A stretch of 64,000 nt of DNA from Myripristis murdjan (GCF_902150065.1 NC_043987.1:1689386-1753385); one strand, 5' to 3'. Positions 37,801 to 57,480 are shown, counted from the stretch's first letter. The notes: generated from the letters alone by a model not told the origin. Translations and numbers: made by a program.

Positions 37801-38448
37801 TAAAAGGTGCAAAGGAAAATCAAATATGGTCTGAATTCCTGCAGTGGTTGGCAAGACGCTGGCTTGTGTGGTATGAAGTGGAACAGGTGACTGGGCGTGC
37901 CTGCCGCAGGTGACACTTTGTCGACAACACAAAGAGGTGTGTTTGTTTGACAGAGTTGGGAGGCGGAGAGGAGACGTTTATTTAAAGCAGACTGGCTTTG
38001 AGTTGGACATGGATCTGTAGTGATGGCTGTGTACAAGCTGCTCAGTGTGGCAACGCTGCTGATTTTACTGACACGAGGTAAGTGGCTCCTCCATCGCCTT
38101 TCCATCACTACACAGCTCAGTCTGTGAGGAACCGCTAGGTGTGCTGAGATCAAAGTCACTGTGCTTATTGCATATAGAGTTGAGTCAAGTTCAGATAGAC
38201 AATTCTAATTTTCACTTAATTTCTTTTAAAAACATGGGGGAAAGCGATTTTCAAATTAGCATTTTAAAAAAAGGCAAAATTCCAAGACAATCAGCCAAAA
38301 ATTACAATATATTTTGAAAACTACAAGAAATCTGTATTTAGAATTATTACACTGATGTATTTAAATGTCAGATCAGTGATGCTAGGTCAGATTTCTTGAG
38401 TTTAAATGTTTGTTTAAATGCCTCAGGCATTCCCAAGCATCTAACCCA

Positions 38449-39115: not shown

Positions 39116-41734
39116 AATTTTTTTTTTTAAATGAAAATGTGTAAAATTGTACTGGAAAATTGTTACTTGATAGAAAAATGAAAATATATATAAATAAATA
39201 CATAAAATTATAAACAGATACAATGAATAAATGTGTGAATTACAACGGCATATTAGTGCTATTGTAGGGAGAAAAAAAATTCTGGAGACATAAATTTACA
39301 CAAAAAAACTTGGATATTCTCTGAGGTGGTAAATTTATGAGAAAAAGCTCACAAGTTTATGAGGAAAAAAAATAGAAATTTATGAAAAAAAACATTCTTT
39401 TCTATTTTTTTTTTTCATCAAGGAACCAAGGACCAAGAACCAGATTCAGTGCGTAGAGTGATGTGGTTCCTTGACCAAAAAATAAGCAAATGTTCCAAAT
39501 ATTTTCTCTTAAATTTGTAAAGTTTTGGGCCTTTTTGTGTAAATTTACCACTTTAATCGTAGAGAATATCTGAATTTTTTCGTGGAATATTATCCCCCTC
39601 CTCTGGCTCTGCAATTTTTTATTTTTTCCCTGCAATGGCCCTTATATGCTGTCGTATACAGGCAGTGACCTATAGCTGACTTTTGACATAGTTCATTTAA
39701 ATAAGCAAGTGTTGAGTGCTCTCTTTGAATAATTTCATAGATGTGAATAATTTCTTTTTTGGAAACATATGATTATTATAAGAAGCATGCCCACTTCTGT
39801 CGCCCTGTGCTGCTCTTGGAGGAGGTTTTGCTCCATGGATTTGGCCAAGATCTGTTGGGTTTCTGTAAAACACCTTGAGATAACTTCTGTTATGATTTGA
39901 CGCTATACAGATAAAACAGAATTGAACTGAATATGAGGATTGAGCCATCCCTGCTTCAGGTTGAATGAACTGTATACTGCAACTTGACACAGATGGTTAA
40001 GGTTGGAGGTATTTTCCAGCTGGGCTGTCAGGTGCTACACGTTGTCTCCAGGAGTCAGGGTTTACACAACCTGGGAGTTTGTCCAGCGGGCAACAAATTA
40101 AAATGCCTCTGGAATCCCATCTATATACAGTCATAACTAGCACACCTGCAGTGAAGAGGACATGTGAACACCAGAGAGAAGTGTGCTAATGTGCACATGT
40201 TTGACAAGGGAAATGTGGCAGCCTTGTGATTGCAAGACGTTTATTTATTTAGATCACTCAAAAGGATTAAGGAAGTAACTCAGTGACTAAATGAGATCCT
40301 TCCTGTCAGTCTTTCTAACGTGATGTGTTCAGTAATTACTACTCATTATAAGGAAGTTATGCAGCCAATGGGTGTCTTTACCAAGTGGGTGTGGCCACAT
40401 TGCACTGTCTATGACTGCAAAGCATTCTTTTAAGAATTTGGGACCCTCCATAATTATTATTATTAATTATTACAAGGCGTCCCATAAGTGAAAAATGCAG
40501 GATGTGCATTGAGCTTTTTGAGCGACTTTATAAAACTCTGCTAACAAAGACAGTCAACAGAGACAGAGACAGGGTCGGGGCAAGCCGGTGTGTGTGCTGT
40601 GACAGACTGAGCTGAGTGTGTGTGTGTGTGTCTGTGTGTGAGAGAGAATGAGAGCGAGAGAGAAAAAGAGAGAGTTTTAGTAATAATTTTGAATTTTACT
40701 ATTTTAATTTGTGATCTTTTTGACATACAGTTTCTACTGAAAGTATATGACTTCTGGCAGAAATGGCTGGTGAGCCACAGCTTGCAGACCTCTGGTGTAA
40801 TGTGTGTAATAAAGAGAAACTGATACAGAGAGAACAAGTAAAAGCTAAACTCAACAGGGTTGTGAGTTTTATGGTTTATTTTCTTAACTGTTCTGTACCA
40901 GATTTGAATCAAGCAGTAATTAATTAGTAATCTGTAACATGTTTGACAGTCCAAATGGCTGCTGAGGAGTCTCTCCTGAGTTTTGCTCAGCGCACAGCCC
41001 ATAGTCTGGAACAGGGGAGATACGCCTAGCAGAGATTTGCACTCAGTGTACTCTTCTAGTTATTTCTTTGTTTTTCCACCTCTGTGTTTTGTCACACACG
41101 GAATACTTGTAGCATGGAATTTAATTTTTACAAACATTTCCTGGTGGCAGAGATCATTTGGTTAACTGAGTCACATGAATGGACCCCAACAGCTATTGTT
41201 TTTCTGGCTAGTAATGTCCAGAGTATGGTGACGGATGACTCATCTGAACAAATCACTTGAACTCTCAGATTTGCATTTGTCTTTGTAATGAGGCTCTATG
41301 CACTGCAGTCCTACTAGAATATTCCATTCTATGTGCAGGATCTTTTGGAGGAAAACCATAGGACAATGAAGAGACACCACACGCATACATACAGATAGCT
41401 GGAGAACAGTGAGAAAGTTATTTAATTATAAAGGCTGAATGATGAGCTGTGATGATAATCTGATTCTGTGGAGATATACCAAGAGTGCTGCTCTAGGACC
41501 AGACATAAACTTTTTTATGATATGATGTAACAGGCAAAACTGATCAGTACTCAGTGTCTTGTTCTCCCTCTCATGTGGGCTGATTTGGGTTTTAGAAAGC
41601 AAAGCAAAGCAAAGTAATTAGTAATTACTTACTTTTGAGAGAGTAATTAGTAAAGTAATGTGACTGCAGTTTGTAGAGAGTAATGAGTAATTTACTTAAT
41701 TATCTTTTTTAAGTAACTTCCTTAACACTGATTA

Positions 41735-42400
41735 TAGTGTAGTATAGTAAAATATAGTGTTGTATTGCATATTGTAATATAAAGTAGTGTAGTATTGTGT
41801 AGTGTAGTGTAGTATATGATAGTGTAATGTAGTAGCATAGGGTAGTATAGCATAGAATTGTATAGTGTATTATAGTGTAGTTTACTAAAATGTAGTATAG
41901 TGTATTATAGTGTGGAGTATAGTATTGTATCATACAGTATAATATAGTATAGTGTAGTATAGGACACCGGGGTGTACTGTATAGTGCTGTAGTCTATACT
42001 GTAATATAGTTTATTATAGTTATAGTATTGTGCAGTCTATTATAGTGTAATATAGTATAGTGTCATGTACTAGTATGGTATAGTATTGTATAATGTATTG
42101 CAGGGTGGTATAGTATAGTGTGATGTAGAAATATAGTGTAGTATAAGATAACATTGCATAGTGTCATTTAGCAGCAAAATATAGTGAACTATAGTGCAGT
42201 ATAGTATTGTGTGGTGTATTGCAGAGTAGTATAGTATAATTTAATGTAGTAGTGTAGTATATATTGTATAGTGTATTGTAGCATAGTACAGTATTGTGTC
42301 ATGTACTGTATTGTAGTATGGTACCGTATAGTGTAAATAGTATAGTGTAGTGCAGGATAGTATAATGTGTCACAGTGTAGTGTAGTGAACTATGCTGTAC
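41735..42400. repeat. Cryptic low-complexity satellite of about 670 bp built from degenerate TAGTG/TATAG/TGTAG pentamer-like units
   Basis: Visible as continuous (tagtgtagtatagtattgtatagtg...)n with no exact period. Generates the spurious Y/T/L-rich track ORFs 41709..41933 and 42299..42541. Confidence 0.7.
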
Positions 42401-42850: not shown

Positions 42851-45800
42851 ACTATACTACACTATAGTTTTTGGGAACTATTCAAAGTAACTGCAGTGAT
42901 TTCTGTCAAAATGTTTCAAAAACCTTAGCACACAGTGTTTGTTAAAATGTCGGTGGAGATTCTCAGTCATCCAGGTCATGATATACATGTAACAACCGGG
43001 GATTCCCTGCCAGTCAGCCAGAACGGAAGAAGCTTCTTGGAGGAGAAGCGAAACGTCTTCTGAAATCCTACTATCAAGTCCAGTCGACTTTGTTCAAACC
43101 TTACTTGTTGTTTGTTACTGTTGTACGCTGAAACAGCTGAATCTGGTGAAAACAGGCTCAGTTATGTGATCGCTCCCTGAGGGTCAGTTTGTTGCTTTAG
43201 ATTATCTCAGTGCCACTGTAGAAGAACACAGTATGGACTGTCATTATTACAGATGGTGGGGGCCAGGACACAGTGTGTCAGGGTGGCTGTGGATGGAAAC
43301 TGCCTCAGTGAGCTTGCACTCTGGAAAAGGCTGTGCTGTTTTGTCACATCTCCTGTCCTCTGTGAGACAACATGTGGAACTGGTGCTACTTTTCAACAGA
43401 GGTGGAAAGACTGCTTCCTATCCAAGTAGTGCTGCTACTTTGCTAAAAATGTTGATATTCTGCATTTAAAATCTTCACACAGATGAATTACTTTCAGTGT
43501 TACAAGTGATCTTCTCCATGCAATTACAAACAAAAGGATGGGAGCACAGAGTTGAAACTGTGGTTTTTCGAACTGGAAAAATTAGAATTGACAAATTAAA
43601 GGTGACAAAGTAAAGGCAGATTCCGCCTTCCTGCTTCACTATGACTTTGCATTTCAGCACTGATAACAACCACTGTGGAAACTTGGCATTTTCACGGGGA
43701 ACATATTTCCTGTTTGGCTTGAAAGACCAACTGTGAACAACGCGGGTATTCAAGGCTGATGTTGTGTGAAAACATGTGATTACCTCACTTAGACAAGGCA
43801 GTAAAACCAGTTGTATGAAATGACAGATGCTTTGTTGCTTAATCAGCAGACAGCTCTGATAATAGCACATTAGTCAAGACTCTAAGCCTCTGTGGTGACA
43901 TTTTATATCCTTGAACACACAATATAACCATCATACGTCAAGTTCAGGTCATTTAAGGTCAGTACCCTTATTATCCTTAAAGGAGATTTCATTTTAGGAC
44001 AATAGGACAGCAAATTACATTGTATCCTTTTACTAGTTCCACTTACATAAAATTCCTGACACACAACAGGCACCCAGAGAAGCAGTCAAAGAGTGAAGCA
44101 GACTTGCTTGCATCTTGTAGTCTGGAAGTTGAGGATATAAAGGGTATCAAGGGTATAAAGGTCCTGAAAAGATGTGATGTCTGCTTTTCAGCACATCATT
44201 GTCCTGTGTTAGTCAGCATACCTTGTGCTGTATCTTCTCAACACAGGATATACCACTATTGTGTTGACAAGCACAGTTCAGCCTTCCATTCCAAACTGAA
44301 CAGCACACTGCAGCCACCAGCACCCCCCCTCATTGTGTGTGTACTTGACAGAATGATCTGAACCTGTCTGTTTAACTGCTGTTTGTTTTCTGTTTTTCAG
44401 GGTCTCACTCACAGTTAGATGGTAAGTCAAAGTTTCTATTGGCATTTTTTCCGTATTTGCTTCCCGCCCACTTCTGGTTGCCCAATGTTTGCATTTCAGA
44501 AGAGCGTTGAGAAAGAGGTGTCACATTCCAAACACCATCAGGACTTAATCTTTTAACAACTGCTTGATAATAAAACTGGACTGCCGTTGGTGTAATAAAA
44601 CGTGAGGCCACCACCGTGCCATGTTGCATTGGCATGCCCGTGTTTTCTAACATTACTGACAGACGTGCTGTAATCACCGGATCTATAAACTCTAGCTCCA
44701 TCAACACACACTGAGGTTTTCCTCTTGAAGTGATTTCCATTCATGAGACAGACAATCTGTCGGCTATGAGCATTACTGAATGAAATTTTTAAAAAAAAGA
44801 AAAAAAAAAAAGAAAAAAACATTTGATTTGACCTTTGTTAACAGAGAGGTAACACTTGGCATGGTAGTCCTTATACTCTTATGCTAATTATTTGTATTAA
44901 GAAGGAATTTAGGAAAGGAGGAAAAAATTAGTAGAACATTAGCAAAAAAAAAAAAAAAAAACAACAACAACAAAAAACACAAAGACCAAAAAAAAAAAAG
45001 TTTAAAAATGCACAAGAAAACAATATTTATAATTATTAAAATAATATATTTAAATGTCAGGTCAGTGATGCTGGATCAACCTCTGAATTCTTGTGTTTAG
45101 AAGCTATGAAGGGCTTTCAGCAGCGTCTAAGAGGAAAAGGGCACATAAGCTCTGTTGGATCCTACAGTGTGTATTGTATTTCACGTTTGTCAGCAAATCA
45201 CACACATCTCCAGATTTGTTCCCAAAAATGTGGTCAGCCTAGCCTCGCTGCCACATGAACACTACGCTAGATGGCAAGATTGCTGACAAAAGATTCAAAC
45301 GCTCTGCACGTTTCAAGTGACAGAAACACTGATAAATGATAAGGCGTGTTTTCTGACAACCACTCTAAAATATCTCTGTCTAAATCTCTAAAATGTCAGC
45401 ATGTCAGCATTTTAGCTGGCAAACAAACATAGCTGCTGGCAAGCAAGTTAGTTAAGATAGCTTAGTTTGTTTACAGATGACTGAGACGTTCTGTAAAATA
45501 GTGTTATTACTGCTGGACAGCAAAACGACAAGCATTGGTTTCCCATTTGCTTTCCTCTTTCCGTTTTCTTTTTTCAACACACTGTGCATCTGTGAGTGTA
45601 CCAGTAGGGGGCAGCTTCAGCTGTGGTCTATTATTAGTCTACTACTGAAGGAAGAATGAGTAGGATTTGCAAAAAACCAACAAACAAACAGACAAAATTA
45701 TAGACTGATAAAAAAAATAATCCAGCCAATCACAGTGCACAGTGCCAGAAGGACAGCACAACATCCAATAGGAAGCTATGCAAATTGCTGACGTGCAAAA

Positions 45801-46382
45801 AAAAAAAATCAAGCATGGTGAAGCGTCAACCGGACAAAGTTTGTTCCACAACAAGAGTGAATCTGGGGTTGGCTTTCACACGCTAGCAAGCACTGAGGAA
45901 GAGGATGAAGATGAAGAGCAACACGCTGTCAGCCTGGTTTCTGTAGGACAGAGAGGTGCCAGTGGGATCATTTTTTTTCCCAGGACAGTGACAGTGTCTA
46001 TTCCGTTGCTGGTGGTTAGCTTAACCAGAGAGGTGGGGCCAGCTTTGAATGCTGTGTTTCCAAACCGCAACTGACAAATCCTACTCACTCTTCCTGTAAG
46101 TTATCCATCCAAGTTTATTCTAGATTAGTGCTGGATTAGTTCTTCTAAATAAGTGCAATTCCATACAGTCATACACATTCACATGTGGAGCTGACCAGCA
46201 CAACCACAGCTCTCTACCATCAGCCACTGCAGTGCCACAGGAACACCCACCATGGTGGCCACCACAAGAACTGGCCTGGTCACACCAGTCTGGGCGATCG
46301 AATAGAAAAAAAATGTTGTCATTGGTTGGAAATTAAGAAGACTGAAAGTCCAGCATCTAAGTGCAAGTGAATGTGGCATGAA

Positions 46383-46417
46383 TCTATCTGTCTGTCTGTC
46401 TATATATCTATCTATCA

Positions 46418-46477
<60 letters not shown>

Positions 46478-46487
46478 GTCTGCCACC
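46383..46487. repeat. (TATC)n/(TCTG)n microsatellite about 130 bp upstream of protease exon A
   Basis: At least 20 tetranucleotide units. Confidence 0.95.
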
Positions 46488-46619: not shown

Positions 46620-46782
46620 AGTGTGGTCAGCCTCGCCTGAACACCAGGATCGTTGGAGGGCAGGACGCTCCTGCAGGGAGCTGGCCCTGGCAGGCCAGCA
46701 TCCACGAATTCAACAGTCACATATGTGGAGGATCTCTCATTAACAGTCAGTGGGTGCTGACTGCTGCCCACTGCTTCTCAAG
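46620..46782 (+). CDS. Serine protease gene, exon A: activation site and His region of domain 1 ([53 protein letters not shown]). Exact acceptor (46620 vs 46622) and all upstream signal-peptide exon(s) are unresolved
   Basis: S1-family hallmarks R|IVGG, WPWQ and TAAHC (His codon 46769-71). Donor TCAAG|gtgagg. Confidence 0.8.
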
Positions 46783-47572
46783 GTGAGGGCGCAGTGTGTG
46801 CACTTAACAGCTGAAACTGATGCAGTGTACAGTCTGATCTTGACTACATATTGTTATTTCTTGGACTTCTGTCAGTCTCACTCCTGCCTTAATTCAGACT
46901 TGTCTTGTTCTTGACTGCTACTGTTTTTTGAAAACCTTTTCTTATCTGAAAATATTTTAAAAGTGGAATTTTAATGGTGATCCTTTCATTTTCTATACAA
47001 CTATTTAAAGGATGATACCAGTGATTTTCCATGTTTAGCCTAATATGTACAGATCAGTTTCCTAAATGCAGCCACACTGTTGTGTTATGATGACTTTAAG
47101 TTGGGTGGAGTGTAACGCTCTCTCCACCAGGAAACAGACAATTATAAATTCCATTGTTTATGAGTGGTGGTGGCTTTTATAGCTACAGAACAAGAACATT
47201 ATAAGGTGGGTGTTTCAACCAAAAATTCTAATTTGAAAGTCAAGAGATTTGTATTCCTTGTTTCTCAAAATGGTTTGATGCAATGTAAAATGTGGGGAAA
47301 CTGTAATAAAAAGGCTAAACATTAAAAATCACGGGTAGGGTCCTTTAAGAGATTTTATATATAGAAATGTAATAGTCTTCAGATTTATTTTGTATTGATT
47401 AGTTGTTAAAGGGTGTAGTAGATATGTCCTCCAAAAATGTAGAAATCATTATTTGAAAAGCTGGAAAACCACAGTGTTTTTTTTTTTTCTTTCTTTGGTC
47501 TCATCTTTGGAACTGACATGGATTTGACTGAGTTGGTAATGAATACATCCTGTTTTCAATACCACCCCCCAG

Positions 47573-47841
47573 CGACAACACAGCCGATTTCATCATTTAT
47601 CTGGGCCGCCAGAGTCAACAGGGATCCAACCCCAATGAGGAGTCTCGCACATTAACACAGATCATCCTTCATCCCGACTACAACAACCCCGCCAATGACA
47701 ATGATATTGCTCTCCTCAAGCTCGCCTCACCTGTGAATTTCACCGACTACATTGGCCCTGTCTGCCTGGCACAATCAGGCAGCTCCATCCATGCTGGGAC
47801 TGATAGCTGGGTCACTGGCTGGGGCCACATCCGATCAGGAG
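47573..47841 (+). CDS. Serine protease exon B: Asp region of domain 1 (SDNTADFIIYLGRQSQQGSNPNEESRTLTQIILHPDYNNPANDNDIALLKLASPVNFTDYIGPVCLAQSGSSIHAGTDSWVTGWGHIRSGG)
   Basis: Acceptor cccccag|, donor GGAG|gtaata. DIALLKL motif with catalytic Asp codon 47703-05. Phase continuous with exon A. Confidence 0.85.
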
Positions 47842-48220
47842 GTAATACAGCCACATTCACAGTGGGTTGAGAGACAGGAAGATAGCATCCATTCTTTTTC
47901 AGTGAAAGATAAAGACAGTGCTAAGCATTCTGTCATGATGACAAGAGCCACGCTTCAACTTGTTGTCCACCACAAAATTCAAAGTTTTGTTTTTTCTTTC
48001 AACTAGGGCAACATAACTAGATCTTCTTCTGGGTCCATTTCTTAATCACTCTAATGAAGCCCAAATCTTCTAGTAGTTTCCCAAATATCCAAATATTCTC
48101 AAACAATTATTAGAGTTACAAGCATACCCAGATGTACCCAATATATACTTTGAGAAGAGAATACTTAGCACCCCTTGTAGTGGCTTTCCTTTTTTTAAGA
48201 TTTTTTTTTGGTGGGTATTA

Positions 48221-48376
48221 TTGCTTTACTAGCCAGTCACAGTAGAGAGAGACAGGAAAGACAGGGCATAGAGGGGGGATGAAGGCAACAAAGGCTCTGG
48301 GCCGGATTCAATCCCAGGCTGCTGCAGCTTAGCCTCAGTTTTCGGTGGTATGCACTCTGTATGATAAGCCACCTGT
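48221..48376 (-). mobile_element. SINE copy 3 (minus orientation) in a protease intron
   Basis: CAGTCACAGTAGAGAGAGACAGG tail rc and CAGCTTAGCCTCAG...TGCACTCTG head rc, homologous to 9108-9273. Confidence 0.5.
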
Positions 48377-48854
48377 TGCTTTCATTTCCTTTCATTCCAC
48401 GATGATATGAAAATGAACTTTAGCGACCTCAAACTTTTTTCACACCAGTATTCCATCACTGTAATAAAATCATCGTCCACATTCATTTTCCTAAAAGCGG
48501 CAGCACTGTTGTGTTATGATGACTTGAAATTGGGGCGGAGTGAAACGTTCCCTCTGCCAGAAAACAGTCCCCAGGAAAACATGTTTTAATCAGCTAGTTA
48601 ACAGTTCCGTGGTTTATAAATGGCCATGACCTTGTTAGCAGCTAAAGCTGAATATTGTAAATTGGTGGTTTTAACCAAAATTTTGATTATATGTTCTGAA
48701 CTCTTTAGAACCACCACATGATTTGAAAAATGGTTTGTTGACATGTCAAATATGGTTAAACTGGCCAGTAATCTGCTGCCTGTGATTGAAAACATTTTTC
48801 TAAGTGTATCTTTGTATGAGTGTTTTTCATCAGAGTAAATCTCTCTCTCTCCAG

Positions 48855-49443
<589 letters not shown>

Positions 49444-50879
49444 TAGATTGACAGATTGAGTAGTATAATAATGGACATAAAAGGAAGTGGTTGAAAAATG
49501 AAAGGTGCAGCCACAGAAAATCAAAAAAAGAAAACCACAATATAATACAAGGCCCAATTAAACAAAAACATTAAGACAGAAATCAAAAGATTTTTTTTCT
49601 CTCCCTCCCTCCTCTCCCTCCCCCTCTTCTCAAAGAGGGTGCAAAAGAGATGAAAAGAAATACAAAGTTAAATATAAAAATAAATAAACTAATGAATAGA
49701 TGAAGTAAATTTTAAAAATGATTGAAAATATTGTACATAGGTAATCTTGTGCAAAGCAATGTCATGCTTTTTATATTGCTATGAATTTTTTTTAAATAAT
49801 ATGATACCTAATTGGTAACCAATGTAAGGACTTTAAGGGCATTTATGCCTGATGAAAATCCTCCCAGCAGACTCAAAGAAATATGAAGCCTGCTTATTAT
49901 TTTTTATGTATTATTAAGAGATGTTTCCCTTGCCCTAATAAAAAAAAATGTCAGTATGTCACAAAAATAAAGAGGTAAATCAAAAGGAAGGTAAACTGAC
50001 ATCCAGTCAGCAACCATCATAAGGAAAATAAGTATAAACAAAAATCAATTATAATGTTAAAAAATATTCATTTAGGCCTTTTCCCCTTTAAAAGACTCCA
50101 TCTCTCATAACTAATATAAGTTTAATGCTATTTACTATGACGCAAAGCTGTGATTTGTAAACCTGCACCACTGACAGAGCTGACTTTGGGTTTCACTCCA
50201 ACCAAACACTGCACCCAGTGATTTTAGTTTAGTACCCTGCTCTCTGCTTGAAATTGAACTAAGTGGTAGAATCTCTTGACCATGACATCACTCATGTATA
50301 TGATGATTTTATGACATAAAGATAACCAAAGTATCAAATAAGCCATTTTCACACTACACTTTGCCCTGGGCTAACTCACACTTGCAACTTAGAATGTGGT
50401 ATATCTCCATTCTTAGCCCAGCACTAACTAAACCCCACTCCAGAGCAGGGTTATCCCTGATTTTCTAGGGATATCCTCCAAAACGTCAGGGAGAATGTCT
50501 ATAGAGTGAATCAAGGTTAGAATTAAGATTTGAACATCCAAGAATATTAATAAATATTAATAAAAAGACTTTATCACCTTATTTAAAACCTCTGCCTAGA
50601 GCCCTGTATTATGTACATTACATTGCAGTTAAGTCACCATGATGGTCTTTTCCTTAAATGTTTCCAAAGAAACAGGAGATAAACACCTGAATTGTGAGCT
50701 ACTGTGGCTTTATAAGGCATACTGAGTTTACTGTCTGTCCTTGCTGCAATTGCTAGAAATTCATTGTCACTTATAAATTTTAAAAGGAAAGAAATATTGA
50801 AATAAACCTAACAGAACTTGTAAAAGGAGTTGCCGGAACTGATGTAGATTTTAAACCTTTCATTGTCCTTCACTTTTAG

Positions 50880-51051
50880 CTGTGGTCTGTGGTCGTGCTC
50901 CTATGAACTCACGGATTGGTGGGGGGAGTTTGGTGGAAAATGCAGGTGTGTGGCCGTGGATGGCCAGCATCCAGAAGAATGGAAGCCATGTGTGTGGTGG
51001 GACTCTGGTGGCAGAGGAATTTGTGCTAAGCAGTGCCGATTGCTTCTCAAA
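50880..51051 (+). CDS. Serine protease exon E: start of domain 2 (PVVCGRAPMNSRIGGGSLVENAGVWPWMASIQKNGSHVCGGTLVAEEFVLSSADCFSK); catalytic His replaced by Asp
   Basis: Acceptor cttttag|, donor TCAAA|gtaaga, the same intron phase as exon A. LSSADCF aligns to LTAAHCF (GAT at 51038-40). Confidence 0.75.
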
Positions 51052-51420
51052 GTAAGACATTGGGGGTTGATTTATTAAAGGATCACACCAGTGATTTTGA
51101 ATGTTTGGCCTATTTACTACAATTCACCCACATTTTACATTCCAACAAACCATTTTGCAAATCAGGCAGGGCAACTAAAGATTTTGGACCTACAGTTTTT
51201 CTATGATGTCAAGTCTTTTTCCATTCCAGTTCTCAACATGCATTGGTCCAAGCACTCCTTTTTTTTTTCAAATCTAGATGCCCTGAACTCCAAAAGCTGT
51301 TCACTCATGTCTAATTTTCCATGTTTAATTACTTCTTAAAGTTATTTCCACTCACGTTGAAGCAAAAATTCAGTGAGGTTTTATACATATATGGCCAATC
51401 AGGCTGTCTTGTCTTTCCAG

Positions 51421-51674
51421 TTTCACCATGGCCTCTGAATGGACTGTGATCTTGGGTCGCCTGAAGCAAAACGGATCAAACCCCTTCGAAGTGACACTTA
51501 ATGTCACAAACATCACTCTGAGCAACCTGACCACTAACAATGTGGCTGTCCTGCGTCTGGCAACCCGACCTAGCCTGACGGACTACATCCAGCCAATCTG
51601 TCTAGATACTGGACTAACCTTCAGTGTTGGCTCTGCATGCTGGGCCTCTGGCTGGAGCACAGAACAAGGAGGGG
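51421..51674 (+). CDS. Serine protease exon F, domain 2 (NFTMASEWTVILGRLKQNGSNPFEVTLNVTNITLSNLTTNNVAVLRLATRPSLTDYIQPICLDTGLTFSVGSACWASGWSTEQGGG); catalytic Asp replaced by Asn
   Basis: Acceptor tctttccag|, donor GGGG|gtgagt, the same phase as exon B. NNVAVLRL aligns to NDIALLKL (AAT at 51539-41). Confidence 0.75.
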
Positions 51675-52103
51675 GTGAGTCCACAACCAGGGCTACTTTT
51701 GAGAGATGAAGTTACTTGGAGATCTGAAAACTTGTCAAATTTAGTGACTAATCCTGACTTCAAGTGCAATGTCGGAGCCTTGATGTTTGCAATGACCAAG
51801 TTGCTAAGAGTGGTTTGCCAGAAAAACTGTGATGCTTTGACTGATGTTCAACTCAACCAATGAGAACATTTCTGCTCTGCTCCATGATGTGCTTCACTAA
51901 AACTCAATCTAAAGGAAAATCTGAAACCCAAGTATAGCATAGATTTTTCATACCTTGTTGAATTTGGACTATTGTCAAAATGGAAAATGGTTTTGACACC
52001 AAGACTTTGGTTGATGACATTTTTGCACGTTTATGAATATGTGTGGTTCTGATTAAGGCATCCCACTTTCATTCACTTTCCTCTTGTTTCCTTCTGACCC
52101 CAG

Positions 52104-52201
52104 TGGAACAAGTTCTGCAGGAGCGCCAGACCACAGTGGTGGATTGTGGGAATGCCACATCAAATGACAGCATTTGTACAGGAACTCTAACTCTGCAGCA
52201 G
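52104..52201 (+). CDS. Serine protease exon G, domain 2 (VEQVLQERQTTVVDCGNATSNDSICTGTLTLQQ)
   Basis: Acceptor gaccccag|, donor CAGCAG|gtagga. Paralogous to exon C (LQEV...C...ICAG). Confidence 0.7.
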
Positions 52202-53770
52202 GTAGGAATTACACCTCAGAAAATCTTAAATTAAAAAATCTTAGGCTTTAAGAAGTATGACAATATTTTAAATACAGTCTATAAATCTCTTGATGTTTAA
52301 TGTGCACTATCTAATACAGGTTTACTTTAAAGTACACTACACACAGGAAAAATAAGGGTGCCATCTGGGGCCAAAAATGTACCATAGGTCAAAGTAATGC
52401 CATAGGACAACCTTTTCTGGTGCCTCAAAGAGCAAAAAATCAGTTCTTTGAGGAAAGTACATTCATTACTCCAATGAAGAGAGAAGAGAAAAGCTAGATT
52501 GAAAACACAGTAAATTCTAGTTTCTTACAAGAAAATCGAAGGTGCCAACTGGAACTGAAAACAATTCTTCATAGTGGTACTGTTATGATAGCAAAAAGAA
52601 CTTTCAGACTACAGGTGGTTGTTCTTTGAGGTGGTGCTGAAATGGTTGGAAACAATTTTATTAAATATTTAAAGGACCCCACTGAAGATTTTGAATGTTT
52701 GGCCCATTTACTACAATGTCTCCATATTTTACATGGCAACAAACCATTTTGCAAATCATGGCACTAAAGATTTTTATCTTTAGATTCTTATTGGCATTTA
52801 ATCAAAATCCCTCCATTTGTACATCAGATTTTTTTTTGTTGAGACACCCACCTATTCTACTTCTGCAGCTAACCATAAGCCCTTTTCATATTTGTGCCCT
52901 AGGCCTCCTTAGCCCTAGGTTAACTGAGCCTTGAACTAATTATTCAAGCCTAAGCCCAGGGCTTAGGTTAGCCTCAATTCACACTAATACTTACTAACCC
53001 ATGCCTAACAACCCTTGCCTTAGCCCTGGATTAAGGATTCATCCTTGAAAATCAAAGCCCAGGGTTAATGTCCTTAGCACAGTTTTGATTGAACAACAAA
53101 CAATCTGTTGCTTTTCTAAGGATTGTATTGCTGCTGTTCTAACCTTGATTCTAACCATGATTCACATTAGAGACCTTGACCCCTACTTGTTGGGGATAAC
53201 TTGGGGCTAACCCTATTCTATAGCAGAGCCAGCAAGCCCCAGGCTAAAGTCAAGGTTAGTCCACTTTGGAATGTGCCAGAAACATGCCAGTGTAGGCCAT
53301 TTTCACTGCACAAAGAAAGCTTTCTCACTAAAACTGTGCTTTCACGTGTTCTAAGGACAACCCACCCCAGTAAACCCCAAGTACCCAGTTAGCCCTGGGT
53401 TAATAAGTGATAGTGTGAATCAAGGCTAACCTATGCCCTGTGCTACAGATAGCCCAGCACTTATTTAGCCTAGGGCTAAGGAACTCAAGTTTGAAAAGGA
53501 ACAGCAAAGTGCAGTGTGAACAGCCCCAAAGTTGTCATCAGTCATAAATCAGAGAACTGATAACTGGCTCTGTAAAGCAAATGTTTTCCTGGAGGACTTT
53601 CACACGGTGACAGAATACTGGTGTCAAGAATGTTCAAAGTCTCTGAAAATTCGTTTTAATATCATAGTGGAATGAATTGAAAACAATGGCTAGATAAAGA
53701 GTAGGAAAAATGATTTCAGAATTCTAAAATCTTGTCCATGAAAACATACAAACCCTGTCTGTTTACTTAG

Positions 53771-54103
53771 GGCGATGCTGGAGGTCCTCTGATGTCTAAG
53801 CTGGATGGTTCCTGGATCCAGGCGGCGGTCTTAACAGTCACAGGCAGTGACAATAATCAAACACGAACAAGAAATGGCTCACCAATGGTTTTCACCAAAA
53901 TGAGCGCCTACCAGGAGTTCCTTCGAAGCACAATTGGACCCTTCTTATCTCCAGCCACCAACGTCACAAGCACAAACAGCACAATGACCACGGCCGCCCC
54001 CACCCCCACCACTGAAAATGGCACTTCTCCTCTTCTTCACTCTCCCTTCTTGCTTCTCTTGTTCATCACCTCCATATACCTCCTCCTGTGCTTTGAGAAA
54101 TAG
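53771..54103 (+). CDS. Serine protease terminal exon H, domain 2 (GDAGGPLMSKLDGSWIQAAVLTVTGSDNNQTRTRNGSPMVFTKMSAYQEFLRSTIGPFLSPATNVTSTNSTMTTAAPTPTTENGTSPLLHSPFLLLLFITSIYLLLCFEK*); Ser195 replaced by Ala, followed by a hydrophobic GPI-signal-like tail
   Basis: Acceptor tttacttag|. GDAGGP (GCT at 53777-79). TAG stop 54101-03. C-terminal 20-residue hydrophobic segment after a small-residue stretch. Summed exons A-H from TGT 46622 are 1695 nt, in frame. Confidence 0.75.
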   Translation, partial: GDAGGPLMSKLDGSWIQAAVLTVTGSDNNQTRTRNGSPMVFTKMSAYQEFLRSTIGPFLSPATNVTSTNSTMTTAAPTPTTENGTSPLLHSPFLLLLFITSIYLLLCFEK

Positions 54104-54445
54104 GGACTCTGTCTTCCAATACCTCAGAGCAATCTCTTAGGATATGCCAAAGTTAGATTGTGATAGTTGGATGCAAAAAGTGCTGCATACACAGAAATTT
54201 GATTAAAAGGATGGGTCACCCATTCTGTAAAATGTGACATTATTTCACTCCCCCCTCTAGTGGTTATGACTCTTCAGTGCTGGAAGATAACTGACAAGTA
54301 ATGTTGCAGCTAGCCTCTTCTTTTCCTCTGCTCCCCCTCTATCACACGCAATATTTTATGGTAATTTTTACACCATTTTGGATTGTTAAACTTCTGCTAC
54401 ACATTGTCAAACTTTGTTTATTAAATAACCTGAATGGATTAAGGT

Positions 54446-54481
<36 letters not shown>

Positions 54482-56589
54482 CAAAATGTTAGCTGGGGGG
54501 AAGTCCACCTCTGTGGCAGGAGGCTAACAGTTAGCATTTGGAGCATCCAGCCAGTATCCAGCACTCAGTAACAATGAGAGGAAGAGAGCACCACTACTGT
54601 CCTACAGAACAGCTGGGGGGGAGTGAAATAATATCCCATTTCTCAAAATAGGTGAACTATACTTTTAAAGGGGCATTAAACAAAGACAGCTTGCTCTGCA
54701 GCAGGTTATGTTCAGGGAATGTTTTAGTAAAGGAGGATAAAAATCCTGCCTTCCAGAGGGTCCAAAGGACCTTTTGAAACAAGCTTTACTACAAAATATT
54801 TTTTACATAATTAGATATCAGTAGCATTTGACTTGAATTAGACAAGCATTACAAATAAATGCACTGCTGGATTAATAGATTGTAAGAAGGACTATCCACA
54901 GGCTGACAGTGACTCAGTGTCACATCGCAGAGCCGTATCAAAGAAAAAAACGAATGCTGTGCCATAATGACAGGCATTTAGAAGCCTATTCAGCTAGCTT
55001 TGTCATCCTGCAATCCTCTCTGGCCTTGTGCTTTTGTATCACTCATGTCTCTATTTTAATAATTTCATGTGCAATTTTGTTTGCCACACTTTTACAGTCC
55101 ACTAGGGTTGGAAATTGCTGGCAGTTTATATAACAGATTTACTTGTAGTCTACTGTTTTTTGATCATTTTCTACTTTTTTATTCCTAGTTATATTCTCAT
55201 ACTCTATTTCCCTTTCCTCACTGAATTGTGCCATTTTTATCCTGCTGTTAGGTATTGTGTATCACAGAGATGCTGTGCCTGTATTGAGCTGGCATCACGA
55301 CATAAAGCACTGACAAAGTAATTGTTACATATCTGGTGTTGATCACCCCTCACATGTTTTATGCTAATTTTGTGCAGATAAAGTGATACTTGTTACTGGG
55401 GGTGTAACAATTAACCAGCCGTTCAGTTTGTATTGCGTATTTTGGGTCTCGATTTTGGTTTGATTTGTTTTGTACATCAGGGGAAACCCTATTGTAACTA
55501 TTTGTAATGTTCTCTGTATTTTGCAAAGACAAAATACAGAAAAAATTGCAAAATAACTTTTTTCATTCCAAGATTTGGGATAAACAAATAGTCTTTCAAA
55601 GATAAAAGTGTAAGTCTTCAGCTAAGTGTGTGGCTGTATGGCTCTCATACAGTGGATGTGTATGTAACACTGCACTTTGTAGGCTGTATTGTGGACTGTA
55701 TTGTGGATTTTTTTATGATTTGGTTTTACACCCTTATTTATTACATTTGTAACACTTTGAAACTTGAACAAATTCATTTTGTTTCTTTCAGAAACATGGG
55801 GGAAATGGTGATTAAGCAAATTACCGCAACATTTAAAAAAAGAACAGCATATACATGAATAAAATAAAATCATGAGGAAATTAGCATAATATGAGCAAAG
55901 GTAAATGATTTGAAAAATACAAGAAAGCTATATTTATAATTATTAAAATGAGATATTCGAACATCAGCTCAGTGATGCTGGATCAGCATCTGTTTTTTGT
56001 GTTTAAATGCTTATGAAACTTTCGCACATATACATGAAGGAAAAACAAAGATTCCTTTTTTTTTTTTTAATTTGCTGTGGGAAAAAATGAAATCATTTTG
56101 CTCCTAGCAATAGCACTTATGCATTTTTAGAAATGTATGTTAAGGATCTCAGGAATTTCTTATCTTAAATGGGCAATTGGTGGTGAGAGAACTTGGTGTA
56201 AATGAAGACATACTGTAAACAACATGGCACTGAATCCCGTTTGATCTGTGAATACTCATGCTGCACTTAAAATCAGTTGGTCTTAATAGTTTCCCTGTAC
56301 ACTGTCATTGAATAAAAACATTCTGTGAACAATAATAACAATACTAATCATAATAAATAATCACCGTATGATTCTACTCCTCCTTTTGAATGATGTACAA
56401 ATTTGATGTACAAATTCTTTGTTGAACTGACTTCATTACATTTTTTCTTATATTGTTATATATCTTATACATGCTTGTCTATGGATATTCTCATTTATCC
56501 AGGTCATCGTTCTCTTTGGGCAAACTGAATCGTAGGCAACTGGACTTGTATTTGTCTTAGTTTCGCGTTTCGCCTCTTATCCAAGGTGC

Positions 56590-57170: not shown

Positions 57171-57214
57171 GACTGATATCAGTGGTGGAAAGAGTAACTA
57201 CAAACTGCTCCTCA

Positions 57215-57480
57215 AGTACAAGTACTGTTCCTCTGCTGATATTTGACTGCAGCAGAAGTAGAAGTACTGTTCCTCTGCTGGTATGTGACTGCAGTAGAAG
57301 TAGAAGTACTGTTCCTCTGCTGGTATGTGACTGCAGTAGAAGTAGAAGTACTGTTCCTCTGCTGGTATGTGACTGCAGTAGAAGTAGAAGTACTATTCCT
57401 CTGCTGGTATGTGACTGCAGTAGAAGTAGAAGTACTGTTCCTCTGCTGGTATGTGACTGCAGTAGAAGTAGAAGTAGTGC
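57215..57480. repeat. 42-bp minisatellite x about 6 (CTGCAGTAGAAGTAGAAGTACTGTTCCTCTGCTGGTATGTGA)
   Basis: Exact tandem copies. Produces the repetitive track ORFs 57182..57643, 57212..57502 and 57243..57485. Confidence 0.9.

Follow-up and report, generated by a model that had tools for sequence, protein, structure and literature searches.

Prostasin (PRSS8), like testisin, is a serine protease of the S1 family that is anchored to the membrane by glycosylphosphatidylinositol (GPI), and the β-chains of HGF and MSP are S1 pseudoproteases that need an activation cleavage to bind their receptors. Human polyserase-2 (PRSS36), published as a secreted protein, combines a signal peptide, one active N-terminal domain with an R-IVGG activation site, two inactive S1 domains and heavy glycosylation (PMC1435904). 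TMPRSS9 is described in the same paper as membrane-bound, with only its first two domains reported active (PMC1435904). Here we analyse a 64,000-nucleotide window of the genome of the soldierfish Myripristis murdjan (GCF_902150065.1 NC_043987.1:1689386-1753385; all coordinates are those of the window), whose + strand carries a protease gene that is real, intact, already annotated and conserved across ray-finned fishes. The gene is the orthologue of zebrafish zgc:100868. It probably falls within the PRSS36/PRSS8 neighbourhood and, with two S1 domains in one polypeptide encoded by one gene, is a polyserase. We are fairly confident of the reading as a whole, in which this zgc:100868 orthologue is the fish counterpart of the fus-adjacent PRSS36/PRSS8 locus and its 590-aa secretory product works at the cell surface by the mechanism proposed below.

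The Myripristis protein resembles human PRSS36 in its signal peptide, its active N-terminal domain with R-IVGG, its inactive S1 domain and its predicted heavy glycosylation, and shares with mammalian PRSS36 a short hydrophobic C-terminal tail that follows small residues. Both also lie in a FUS neighbourhood (seen here on the fish side and assumed on the human side), and many fish orthologues bear the NCBI name 'polyserase-2'. The three-domain PRSS36 layout without activation motifs was not found: the soldierfish protein has two domains, and its dead domain, which like those of other fishes lacks His57 and Asp102 and in Myripristis also Ser195, keeps an Arg-Ile site at Arg317-Ile318. In human PRSS36, by contrast, domain 2 lacks only His57 and domain 3 only Asp102, and neither has an activation motif (our alignment, in agreement with PMC1435904).

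Prostasin is the closest solved relative of domain 1 by sequence and by fold, and is alike in its trypsin-like Asp189 specificity, its propeptide cysteine tether, its C-terminal hydrophobic signal and the site of the C-N-C motif of fish domain 1, at which its crystallised constructs have C-N-S or C-N-A. It differs in having a single protease domain and no pseudoprotease module. TMPRSS9 (polyserase-1) and PRSS53 (polyserase-3) also hold several S1 domains per polypeptide, and annotation pipelines have labelled many of the fish orthologues 'TMPRSS9-like' and that of bowfin 'PRSS53'. TMPRSS9, however, has an N-terminal type II anchor, an LDLa module and domains that are released, whereas the Myripristis protein starts with a signal peptide and ends in a putative anchor signal. 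We rejected a TMPRSS9 or type II identity: the N-terminus is short and signal-peptide-like, and only Trypsin-type Pfam domains, with no LDLa, were detected. PRSS53, unlike the Myripristis protein, is secreted, non-glycosylated and in possession of the triad in both domains (PMC1435904). The HGF and MSP β-chains resemble domain 2 in combining a dead triad with a retained Arg-Ile/Val site and Asp194, a combination suggesting that the 'activation domain', ordered by cleavage, may form a surface for binding in place of a catalytic site, but there is no specific sequence relationship and there are no kringle or PAN domains, making this an analogy only.

A single ten-exon gene with two S1 domains

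We rebuilt the exon chain from the sequence between 46000 and 55000; residue numbers refer to the 590-aa product. Ten coding exons (55, 21, 163, 269, 146, 262, 172, 254, 98 and 333 nucleotides; Table 1) give a complete 590-aa conceptual translation, which an exact-sequence look-up found to equal RefSeq XP_029914919.1 letter for letter, including the join between exons D and E. The encoded layout is a signal peptide, a short propeptide, a prostasin-like zymogen domain, a Cys-containing extension, a Pro/Thr linker, a dead S1 domain, a stalk and a hydrophobic segment. The first-pass annotation had the gene begin at 46620 and missed the first two coding exons, which we located with the N-termini of orthologues (tblastn) and which place the gene start 8.6 kb upstream of that position. 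It also gave the product of exons A–H as 565 aa; these exons translate without a stop into 564 aa, followed by TAG.

Exons A–H are each bordered by AG and GT. The entry phases of exons A–D (1, 2, 1, 0) recur in E–H, and the breakpoints lie at aligned sites in the two domains: after CFS(S/N), after the GG or SG preceding the 140s loop, and immediately before GD(S/A)GGP. Exons A–D encode a canonical domain in which R-IVGG, TAAHC, DIALLKL and GDSGGP can all be read. Exons E–H encode a second, paralogous domain, 35% identical to the first (E = 3e-41), in which the corresponding motifs are R-IGGG, SADC, NNVAVLRL and GDAGGP and the three triad codons are GAT, AAT and GCT. Pfam Trypsin (PF00089) matches two stretches of the A–H product (E = 6e-107), which together with the inter-domain identity puts the two-domain match beyond chance. 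A domain search of the 64-kb window found no S1 domain besides these two. The structural reading of the first-pass annotation, a single gene joining a canonical domain to a paralogue with matching exon breakpoints and a fully replaced triad, is thereby supported, and its comparison with the active and inactive domains of human polyserase-2 is apt.

The D–E junction has transcript-level support in an orthologue. A 2170-nucleotide Logan contig from run SRR31573548 encodes an uninterrupted 584-aa grouper orthologue; it has no introns and is therefore transcript-derived, and when it is aligned to the window by blastn the matching blocks break off at the exon A–H borders. Mapping of the sea-bass protein onto its locus gives the same ten exons (55, 21, 160, 269, 146, 265, 172, 254, 98 and 330 nucleotides), so that the D–E join is present in the genes or transcripts of these two orthologues.

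More than 100 fish proteins found by database search share the layout, and orthologues of 570-620 aa with this layout occur in dozens of fishes. RefSeq names XP_029914919.1 'serine protease 27(-like)' [Myripristis murdjan], UniProt/Ensembl fragments of the soldierfish gene are named Zgc:100868, and the automated names across the orthologue group are inconsistent: TMPRSS9(-like), polyserase-2(-like), zgc:100868, PRSS27, PRSS48-like, PRSS53 and prostasin. Novelty is low, because the gene is already annotated, widespread and of polyserase type. The suggestion that a membrane-tethered fish protein of this build may be undescribed fails for the protein, which is in RefSeq with annotated orthologues, but fits the literature on its function, in that our literature search found no functional study of zgc:100868 or of a fish polyserase, and fish papers that name polyserase did so only as a biomarker. 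In the papers found, zebrafish zgc:100868 figures solely as a differentially expressed gene, in two transcriptome studies: as a co-expression hub with irg1l and noxo1a, where it is called unannotated (PMC11140123), and as cold-induced along with mmp13a (PMC3364249). A 'TMPRSS9-like' gene, whose membership in the zgc:100868 orthologue group was not checked, is a marker of gut inflammation in salmon (PMC4911373).

A predicted protease joined to an ancient pseudoprotease

Domain 1 is by its sequence an active-type member of the S1A family that we predict to be catalytically competent. Pfam PF00089 matches it over its full length (residues 10-238 of the A–H product), and it contains the complete triad (H76/D124/S221), the Asp189-equivalent D215 and the activation sequence R35-I36VGG. 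It has the cysteines for three disulfides (42-58, 168-182 and 191-220) and for the propeptide-Cys122 pair, and both members of the 136-201 pair are missing, as they are from other teleost first domains. The domain is followed by a conserved extension, NQPGF.TF.S.G.D.DL..C, with an invariant Cys291. Among solved relatives of domain 1 with its extension, human prostasin comes out best in sequence (E = 7e-64), and it ranks first in a Foldseek search with the AlphaFold model (target-normalised template modelling score 0.88, 42% identity). The invariant C-N-C motif and Cys291 leave one additional cysteine pair, which probably staples the extension onto domain 1.

For domain 2 we aligned 77 related C-terminal domains from teleosts with two or three S1 domains and from bowfin; gar was included in the trees. 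None has His at position 57 (Asn in 38, Asp in 21, Ser in 6 and other residues in 12), 76 of the 77 have Asn at position 102, 64 have Thr at position 189, and 71 have Glu, Gln or Asp at position 191. The non-Cys residue at position 191 means that the 191-220 disulfide is lost and, with Thr477 at the Asp189 position and Gln479 at the Cys191 position, Myripristis has lost both this disulfide and the S1 pocket. Position 195 is still Ser in 56/77 (Ala in 8/77), and the fully dead Myripristis triad is therefore a derived minority and not the family state. The zymogen-type elements are largely kept: Arg15 in 69/77, Ile, Leu or Val16 in 67/77, Gly193 in 64/77, Asp194 in 65/77, Gly197 in 75/77, and Gly196, Pro198, Cys122 and the pre-domain (tether) cysteine in all 77. 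With an S1 fold match and catalytic residues that are replaced and conserved as such, domain 2 is an S1A pseudoprotease, and as judged from this alignment the pseudo-enzyme state of the C-terminal domain is ancient.

The ratio of nonsynonymous to synonymous substitution rates (dN/dS; Nei-Gojobori, Myripristis against sea bass, by region) is 0.211 in domain 2, 0.233 in domain 1, 0.125 in the linker and 0.765 in the stalk and tail. Domain 2 has been under purifying selection since before the split between bowfin/gar and teleosts, and is 47-70% identical across relatives back to bowfin. Its invariant motifs include GRLKQNGSNPFEV and NIT. It has ten N-glycosylation sequons versus one in domain 1, and NIT and NGS are invariant or nearly so. 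AlphaFold predicts two S1 barrels, in which most 10-residue block means exceed 75 and a few blocks in loops drop to the 50s; values under 50 mark the linker (299-321) and the stalk (543-573) as disordered, and residues 573-587 form a terminal helix. Exon H of Myripristis is as conserved as that of Polymixia and Centroberyx and shows no lineage-specific acceleration, which ruled out a lineage-specific decay of this exon.

In neighbour-joining trees of the domains (100 bootstraps), which use only distances and have long branches and few outgroups, one clade (100%) unites the dead domains of fishes, those of bowfin and gar among them, and this clade joins the fish active domains (69%). Domains 2 and 3 of mammalian PRSS36 form a clade of their own (95%). 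The fish dead domain thus groups with fish active domains and the mammalian ones stand apart, suggesting that the fish and mammalian pseudo-domains probably arose independently. Fish domain 1 is not specifically joined with support to PRSS36 domain 1 or to prostasin; coelacanth domain 1 groups with prostasin (82%). A domain-by-domain orthology with PRSS36, pairing the first domains with each other and the dead domain with domain 2 or 3, was not borne out in these trees.

In this family, domains are readily duplicated and catalysis has been lost repeatedly. Three-domain relatives of 850-980 aa, with the dead domain last, occur in many species; the order in bowfin (Amia) is active, active, dead, and in a Lates three-domain protein the first two domains have Ser195 changed to Gly and the first also His57 to Ser. 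In gar, the two S1 domains of the Lepisosteus oculatus polyserase-2-like isoform X1 are both triad-dead (domain 1 reads TAAICF, YDNIAL and GILGSP); this protein has a Pro/Thr/Ser mucin-like repeat of about 230 aa between its domains and the same hydrophobic tail.

The C-terminal tail, alternative readings and a proposed mechanism

Nearly all orthologues end in the same way: a stalk rich in Ser, Thr and Asn leads to clustered small residues (TSGG.PAHS in the typical case), and these to a short spacer and a hydrophobic run. The run covers 16-20 residues up to the C-terminus and is followed by no basic cytoplasmic tail; in Myripristis only Glu-Lys comes after it. Taken as a possible membrane segment, it measures 16-23 residues with a mean hydropathy of about 1.9-2.7. 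We judged this layout with a strict but crude home-made rule, which 60 of the 77 related sequences pass, most failures being due to a single Arg in the tail. For Myripristis the rule picked the implausible omega triplet 'APT', and we do not rely on its site call. Mammalian PRSS36 tails (human, gorilla, opossum, platypus, echidna, mouse, cat and dolphin) have small residues (ASGSP..) followed by 10-13 hydrophobic residues, and a tail of this type does not therefore set the fish protein apart from PRSS36. The tail has the classical layout of a GPI signal and suggests that the protein may be GPI-anchored. The GPI-like tail of the first-pass annotation thus stands as a hydrophobic C-terminus resembling such a signal, with which anchoring itself is consistent.

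Several points weigh against our interpretation. The transcript that supports the splicing comes from a grouper orthologue. Three Ensembl/UniProt models of the gene (A0A667Y196, A0A667Y8A4 and A0A667YJ42) all lack exon H, ending in the D–E intron (about 49592-49705), in the G–H intron (52521-52574) or by read-through of the exon G donor (52202 onward); these endings either are artefacts of modelling or hint at soluble isoforms that lack the tail or domain 2. At position 201, where 76/77 have Cys, only Myripristis has Ser (TGT is one base from TCT), which leaves Cys436 without a disulfide partner. This Ser489 could be a real lineage change, a polymorphism, a base error or local relaxation. The role we propose for domain 2 rests solely on conservation, and the predicted template modelling score (pTM) of the AlphaFold model is 0.53, which makes the predicted relative orientation of the two domains unreliable. 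As to the anchor, the Myripristis omega site follows the textbook pattern less closely than does TSGG.PAHS, the form in most orthologues, the GPI signal was judged by our home-made rule and the signal peptide from its sequence, and human polyserase-2, which has a similar tail, has been published as secreted (PMC1435904).

We rank the alternative explanations, from the more to the less likely, as a transmembrane anchor, a secreted protein or soluble isoforms, a relic second domain, and two genes. The C-terminal segment could be a type I transmembrane anchor that is kept in the mature protein, in the way that tryptase gamma is anchored C-terminally by a transmembrane segment; its length and hydropathy, its AlphaFold helix and the use of a home-made rule in place of a GPI predictor all leave room for this. 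We consider it unlikely, since the hydrophobic run ends the protein in nearly all orthologues with no basic stop-transfer tail, the small-residue cluster 5-10 residues upstream gives the classical omega/spacer/tail arrangement, and prostasin, the closest solved relative, is described as GPI-anchored (background in PMC3431340). Less probable again is a mature protein that is soluble and secreted, either because the tail is removed or non-functional or because isoforms without exon H or domain 2 predominate. The report of human polyserase-2 as an extracellular glycoprotein despite its similar tail (PMC1435904) and the truncated Ensembl models speak for it. However, bowfin, gar, teleosts and mammals all keep the hydrophobic character of the tail, exon H is conserved in Myripristis to the degree seen in Polymixia and Centroberyx and is included in both the RefSeq model and the grouper transcript, and the Ensembl models lack a start codon and contain odd junctions, such as a GC-AG micro-intron at the 5' end.

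Domain 2 might instead be a decaying relic, functionless itself and tolerated as a mere spacer, as the loss of the triad, the S1 pocket and one disulfide, the differences between species in Ser195 and the 220-loop, and the additional loss of Cys201 in Myripristis would allow. This is very improbable given a dN/dS equal to that of the active domain, the identity kept back to bowfin, the invariance of GRLKQNGSNPFEV, NIT and the Asn at the Asp102 position, the retained Arg-Ile site and Asp194, and the well-folded barrel predicted by AlphaFold. To the remaining possibility, that exons A–D and E–H belong to two genes, or to a gene and a pseudogene, with the D–E join an annotation artefact, we attach next to no probability. 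Although the D–E intron is 1.5 kb long and one Ensembl model stops inside it, exon D continues in phase and stop-free, and neither an ATG nor a separate signal peptide is present in exon E. The join recurs in the RefSeq model, the sea-bass gene and the intronless transcript contig, 45 aligned orthologues share it together with an invariant linker cysteine, and the linker has the lowest dN/dS of all regions. We take two genes or a pseudogene to be effectively refuted by this evidence.

In the mechanism that we propose for a single GPI-anchored protein, the polypeptide would enter the endoplasmic reticulum, where, in the manner of prostasin, a GPI anchor would replace its tail near N563-S566. 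A trypsin-like activator would cut at Arg35-Ile36, leaving the propeptide held by a Cys27-Cys144 disulfide, and domain 1 would then act at the epithelial surface, cutting its substrates behind Arg or Lys residues. The non-catalytic domain 2 may serve as a heavily N-glycosylated pedestal, as a binding or regulatory module between membrane and enzyme, or as both. It may itself be cleaved in zymogen fashion at Arg317 and remain disulfide-linked through Cys309-Cys423. Such a cleavage is probable because Arg317-Ile318, Asp194, the Gly193/196/197-Pro198 frame and the Cys309-Cys423 pair are kept and, with domain 2 disulfide-tethered to domain 1, it would switch conformation without releasing the enzyme. 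A bolder proposal, by analogy with HGF and MSP, is that the dead domain is a cleavage-activated pseudoenzyme, its zymogen switch (Arg317-Ile318, Asp194 and a disulfide tether) still working, and that ray-finned fishes arrived separately from mammals at an 'active protease on a pseudoprotease pedestal'. Once cut by domain 1 or a matriptase-like partner, domain 2 would then become a binding or allosteric module controlling its GPI-anchored neighbour. We put this forward tentatively and consider it rather unlikely.

The practical change brought by this analysis is small, the gene being a correctly annotated RefSeq entry and one of many fish polyserase-type S1 genes. Taken together, the synteny with fus, the architecture, the likeness of domain 1 to prostasin and the conserved tail offer a basis for replacing the varied automated names with a consistent one, 'PRSS36/PRSS8-locus, probably GPI-anchored polyserase'. 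As an old and constrained pseudoprotease with a zymogen-type site, domain 2 is a clean natural case for the study of dead S1 domains beside live ones. Experiments might be worthwhile on two points only, the activation site retained in the long-conserved dead domain and the GPI-like tail that mammalian PRSS36 also has. With such a tail on mammalian PRSS36, it may be asked whether 'secreted' fully describes the human protein; as a corollary of the bolder proposal, the conservation of the tail suggests that the whole PRSS36 family, human included, may be GPI-anchored rather than secreted. The obvious model is zebrafish zgc:100868, whose induction accompanies that of genes for epithelial stress and inflammation (PMC11140123, PMC3364249).

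Locus, feature coordinates and repeats

The gene for the RNA-binding protein FUS (fus) lies directly upstream of the protease gene on the same strand and ends about 6 kb before its ATG (Table 1). It has QGSY-rich exons, an RRM, RGG stretches, RanBP2 zinc-finger exons and a PY-type C-terminus, and in a database search it matched proteins named FUS at 77-97% identity and those named TAF15 at only 63-68%. fus also adjoins the protease gene upstream in sea bass and, as judged by consecutive locus tags, in Scortum. In human, FUS lies beside PRSS36 and PRSS8 at 16p11.2; the orientation of the fish gene relative to fus presumably differs from the human arrangement. Synteny cannot separate PRSS36 from PRSS8, because both share the FUS block. 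fus was not seen within 10 kb upstream of the bowfin gene, leaving synteny at that depth unconfirmed. Between 54104 and 64000 we recognised no gene, and ten long open reading frames upstream and downstream of the protease gene had no Pfam match. The flanks showed no tblastx similarity to the sea-bass locus, whose downstream flank holds a SUI1/eIF1 gene.

Table 1. Window coordinates of the soldierfish protease gene, its notable residues and the upstream fus gene
Feature	Position	Strand	Details	Basis
fus (RNA-binding protein FUS)	9374-32213	+		tblastn with human FUS sequence, then database search
Coding exon 1	38023-38077	+	ATG and signal peptide MAVYKLLSVATLLILLTR; donor GTAAGT; leaves phase 1	tblastn with orthologue N-termini, translation
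Coding exon 2	44401-44421	+	21-nucleotide mini-exon, GSHSQLD, propeptide start; same 21-nucleotide exon in sea bass
Exon A, domain 1	46620-46782	+
Propeptide Cys27	46622-46624	+	exon A
Activation site Arg35-Ile36	46646-46651	+	exon A
His57-equivalent H76	46769-46771	+	exon A
Exon B, domain 1	47573-47841	+
Asp102-equivalent D124	47703-47705	+	exon B
Cys122-equivalent C144	47763-47765	+	exon B
Exon C, domain 1	48855-49000	+
C-N-C motif	48917-48925	+	exon C; cysteines invariant in 45 orthologues
S1-pocket Asp189-equivalent D215	48989-48991	+	exon C
Exon D	49090-49351	+	domain 1 end, prostasin-like C-terminal extension, linker
GDSGGP, Ser195-equivalent S221	49096-49098	+	exon D
Cys291 in extension, invariant	49306-49308	+	exon D
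Exon E, domain 2	50880-51051	+
Tether Cys309	50888-50890	+	exon E
Activation-type site Arg317-Ile318, retained	50912-50917	+	exon E
His57 position, Asp359 (GAT)	51038-51040	+	exon E
Exon F, domain 2	51421-51674	+	conserved N-glycan cluster NGS/NVT/NIT/NLT
Asp102 position, Asn403 (AAT)	51539-51541	+	exon F
Cys423	51599-51601	+	exon F
Cys436 (Cys136 position)	51638-51640	+	exon F
Exon G, domain 2	52104-52201	+	Asp189 position Thr477; Cys191 position Gln479
Exon H	53771-54103	+	domain 2 end, Ser/Thr/Asn-rich stalk, hydrophobic tail, TAG 54101-54103
GDAGGP, Ser195 position Ala483 (GCT), Asp194 kept	53777-53779	+	exon H
Cys201 position, Ser489 (TCT)	53795-53797	+	exon H
Candidate omega region N563-S566	54017-54028	+	exon H
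Hydrophobic tail F573-F588	54047-54094	+	exon H

Four different introns contain copies of one interspersed repeat (47256-47353, 48699-48763, 51070-51184 and 52669-52761), 75-84% alike, with two direct and the others inverted. The G–H intron measures 1.57 kb in Myripristis versus 123 nucleotides in sea bass. Intron 1 holds a degenerate 5/15/30-bp array (41733-42386), and an (ATCT)25 repeat at 46382-46481 finishes 140 bp ahead of exon A. Past the stop codon, an ATTAAA near 54420 is followed by a long T run (54450-54482) in what is likely the 3' untranslated region, and downstream of the gene is a 42-bp minisatellite of 6.3 copies with a 97% match (57214-57476).

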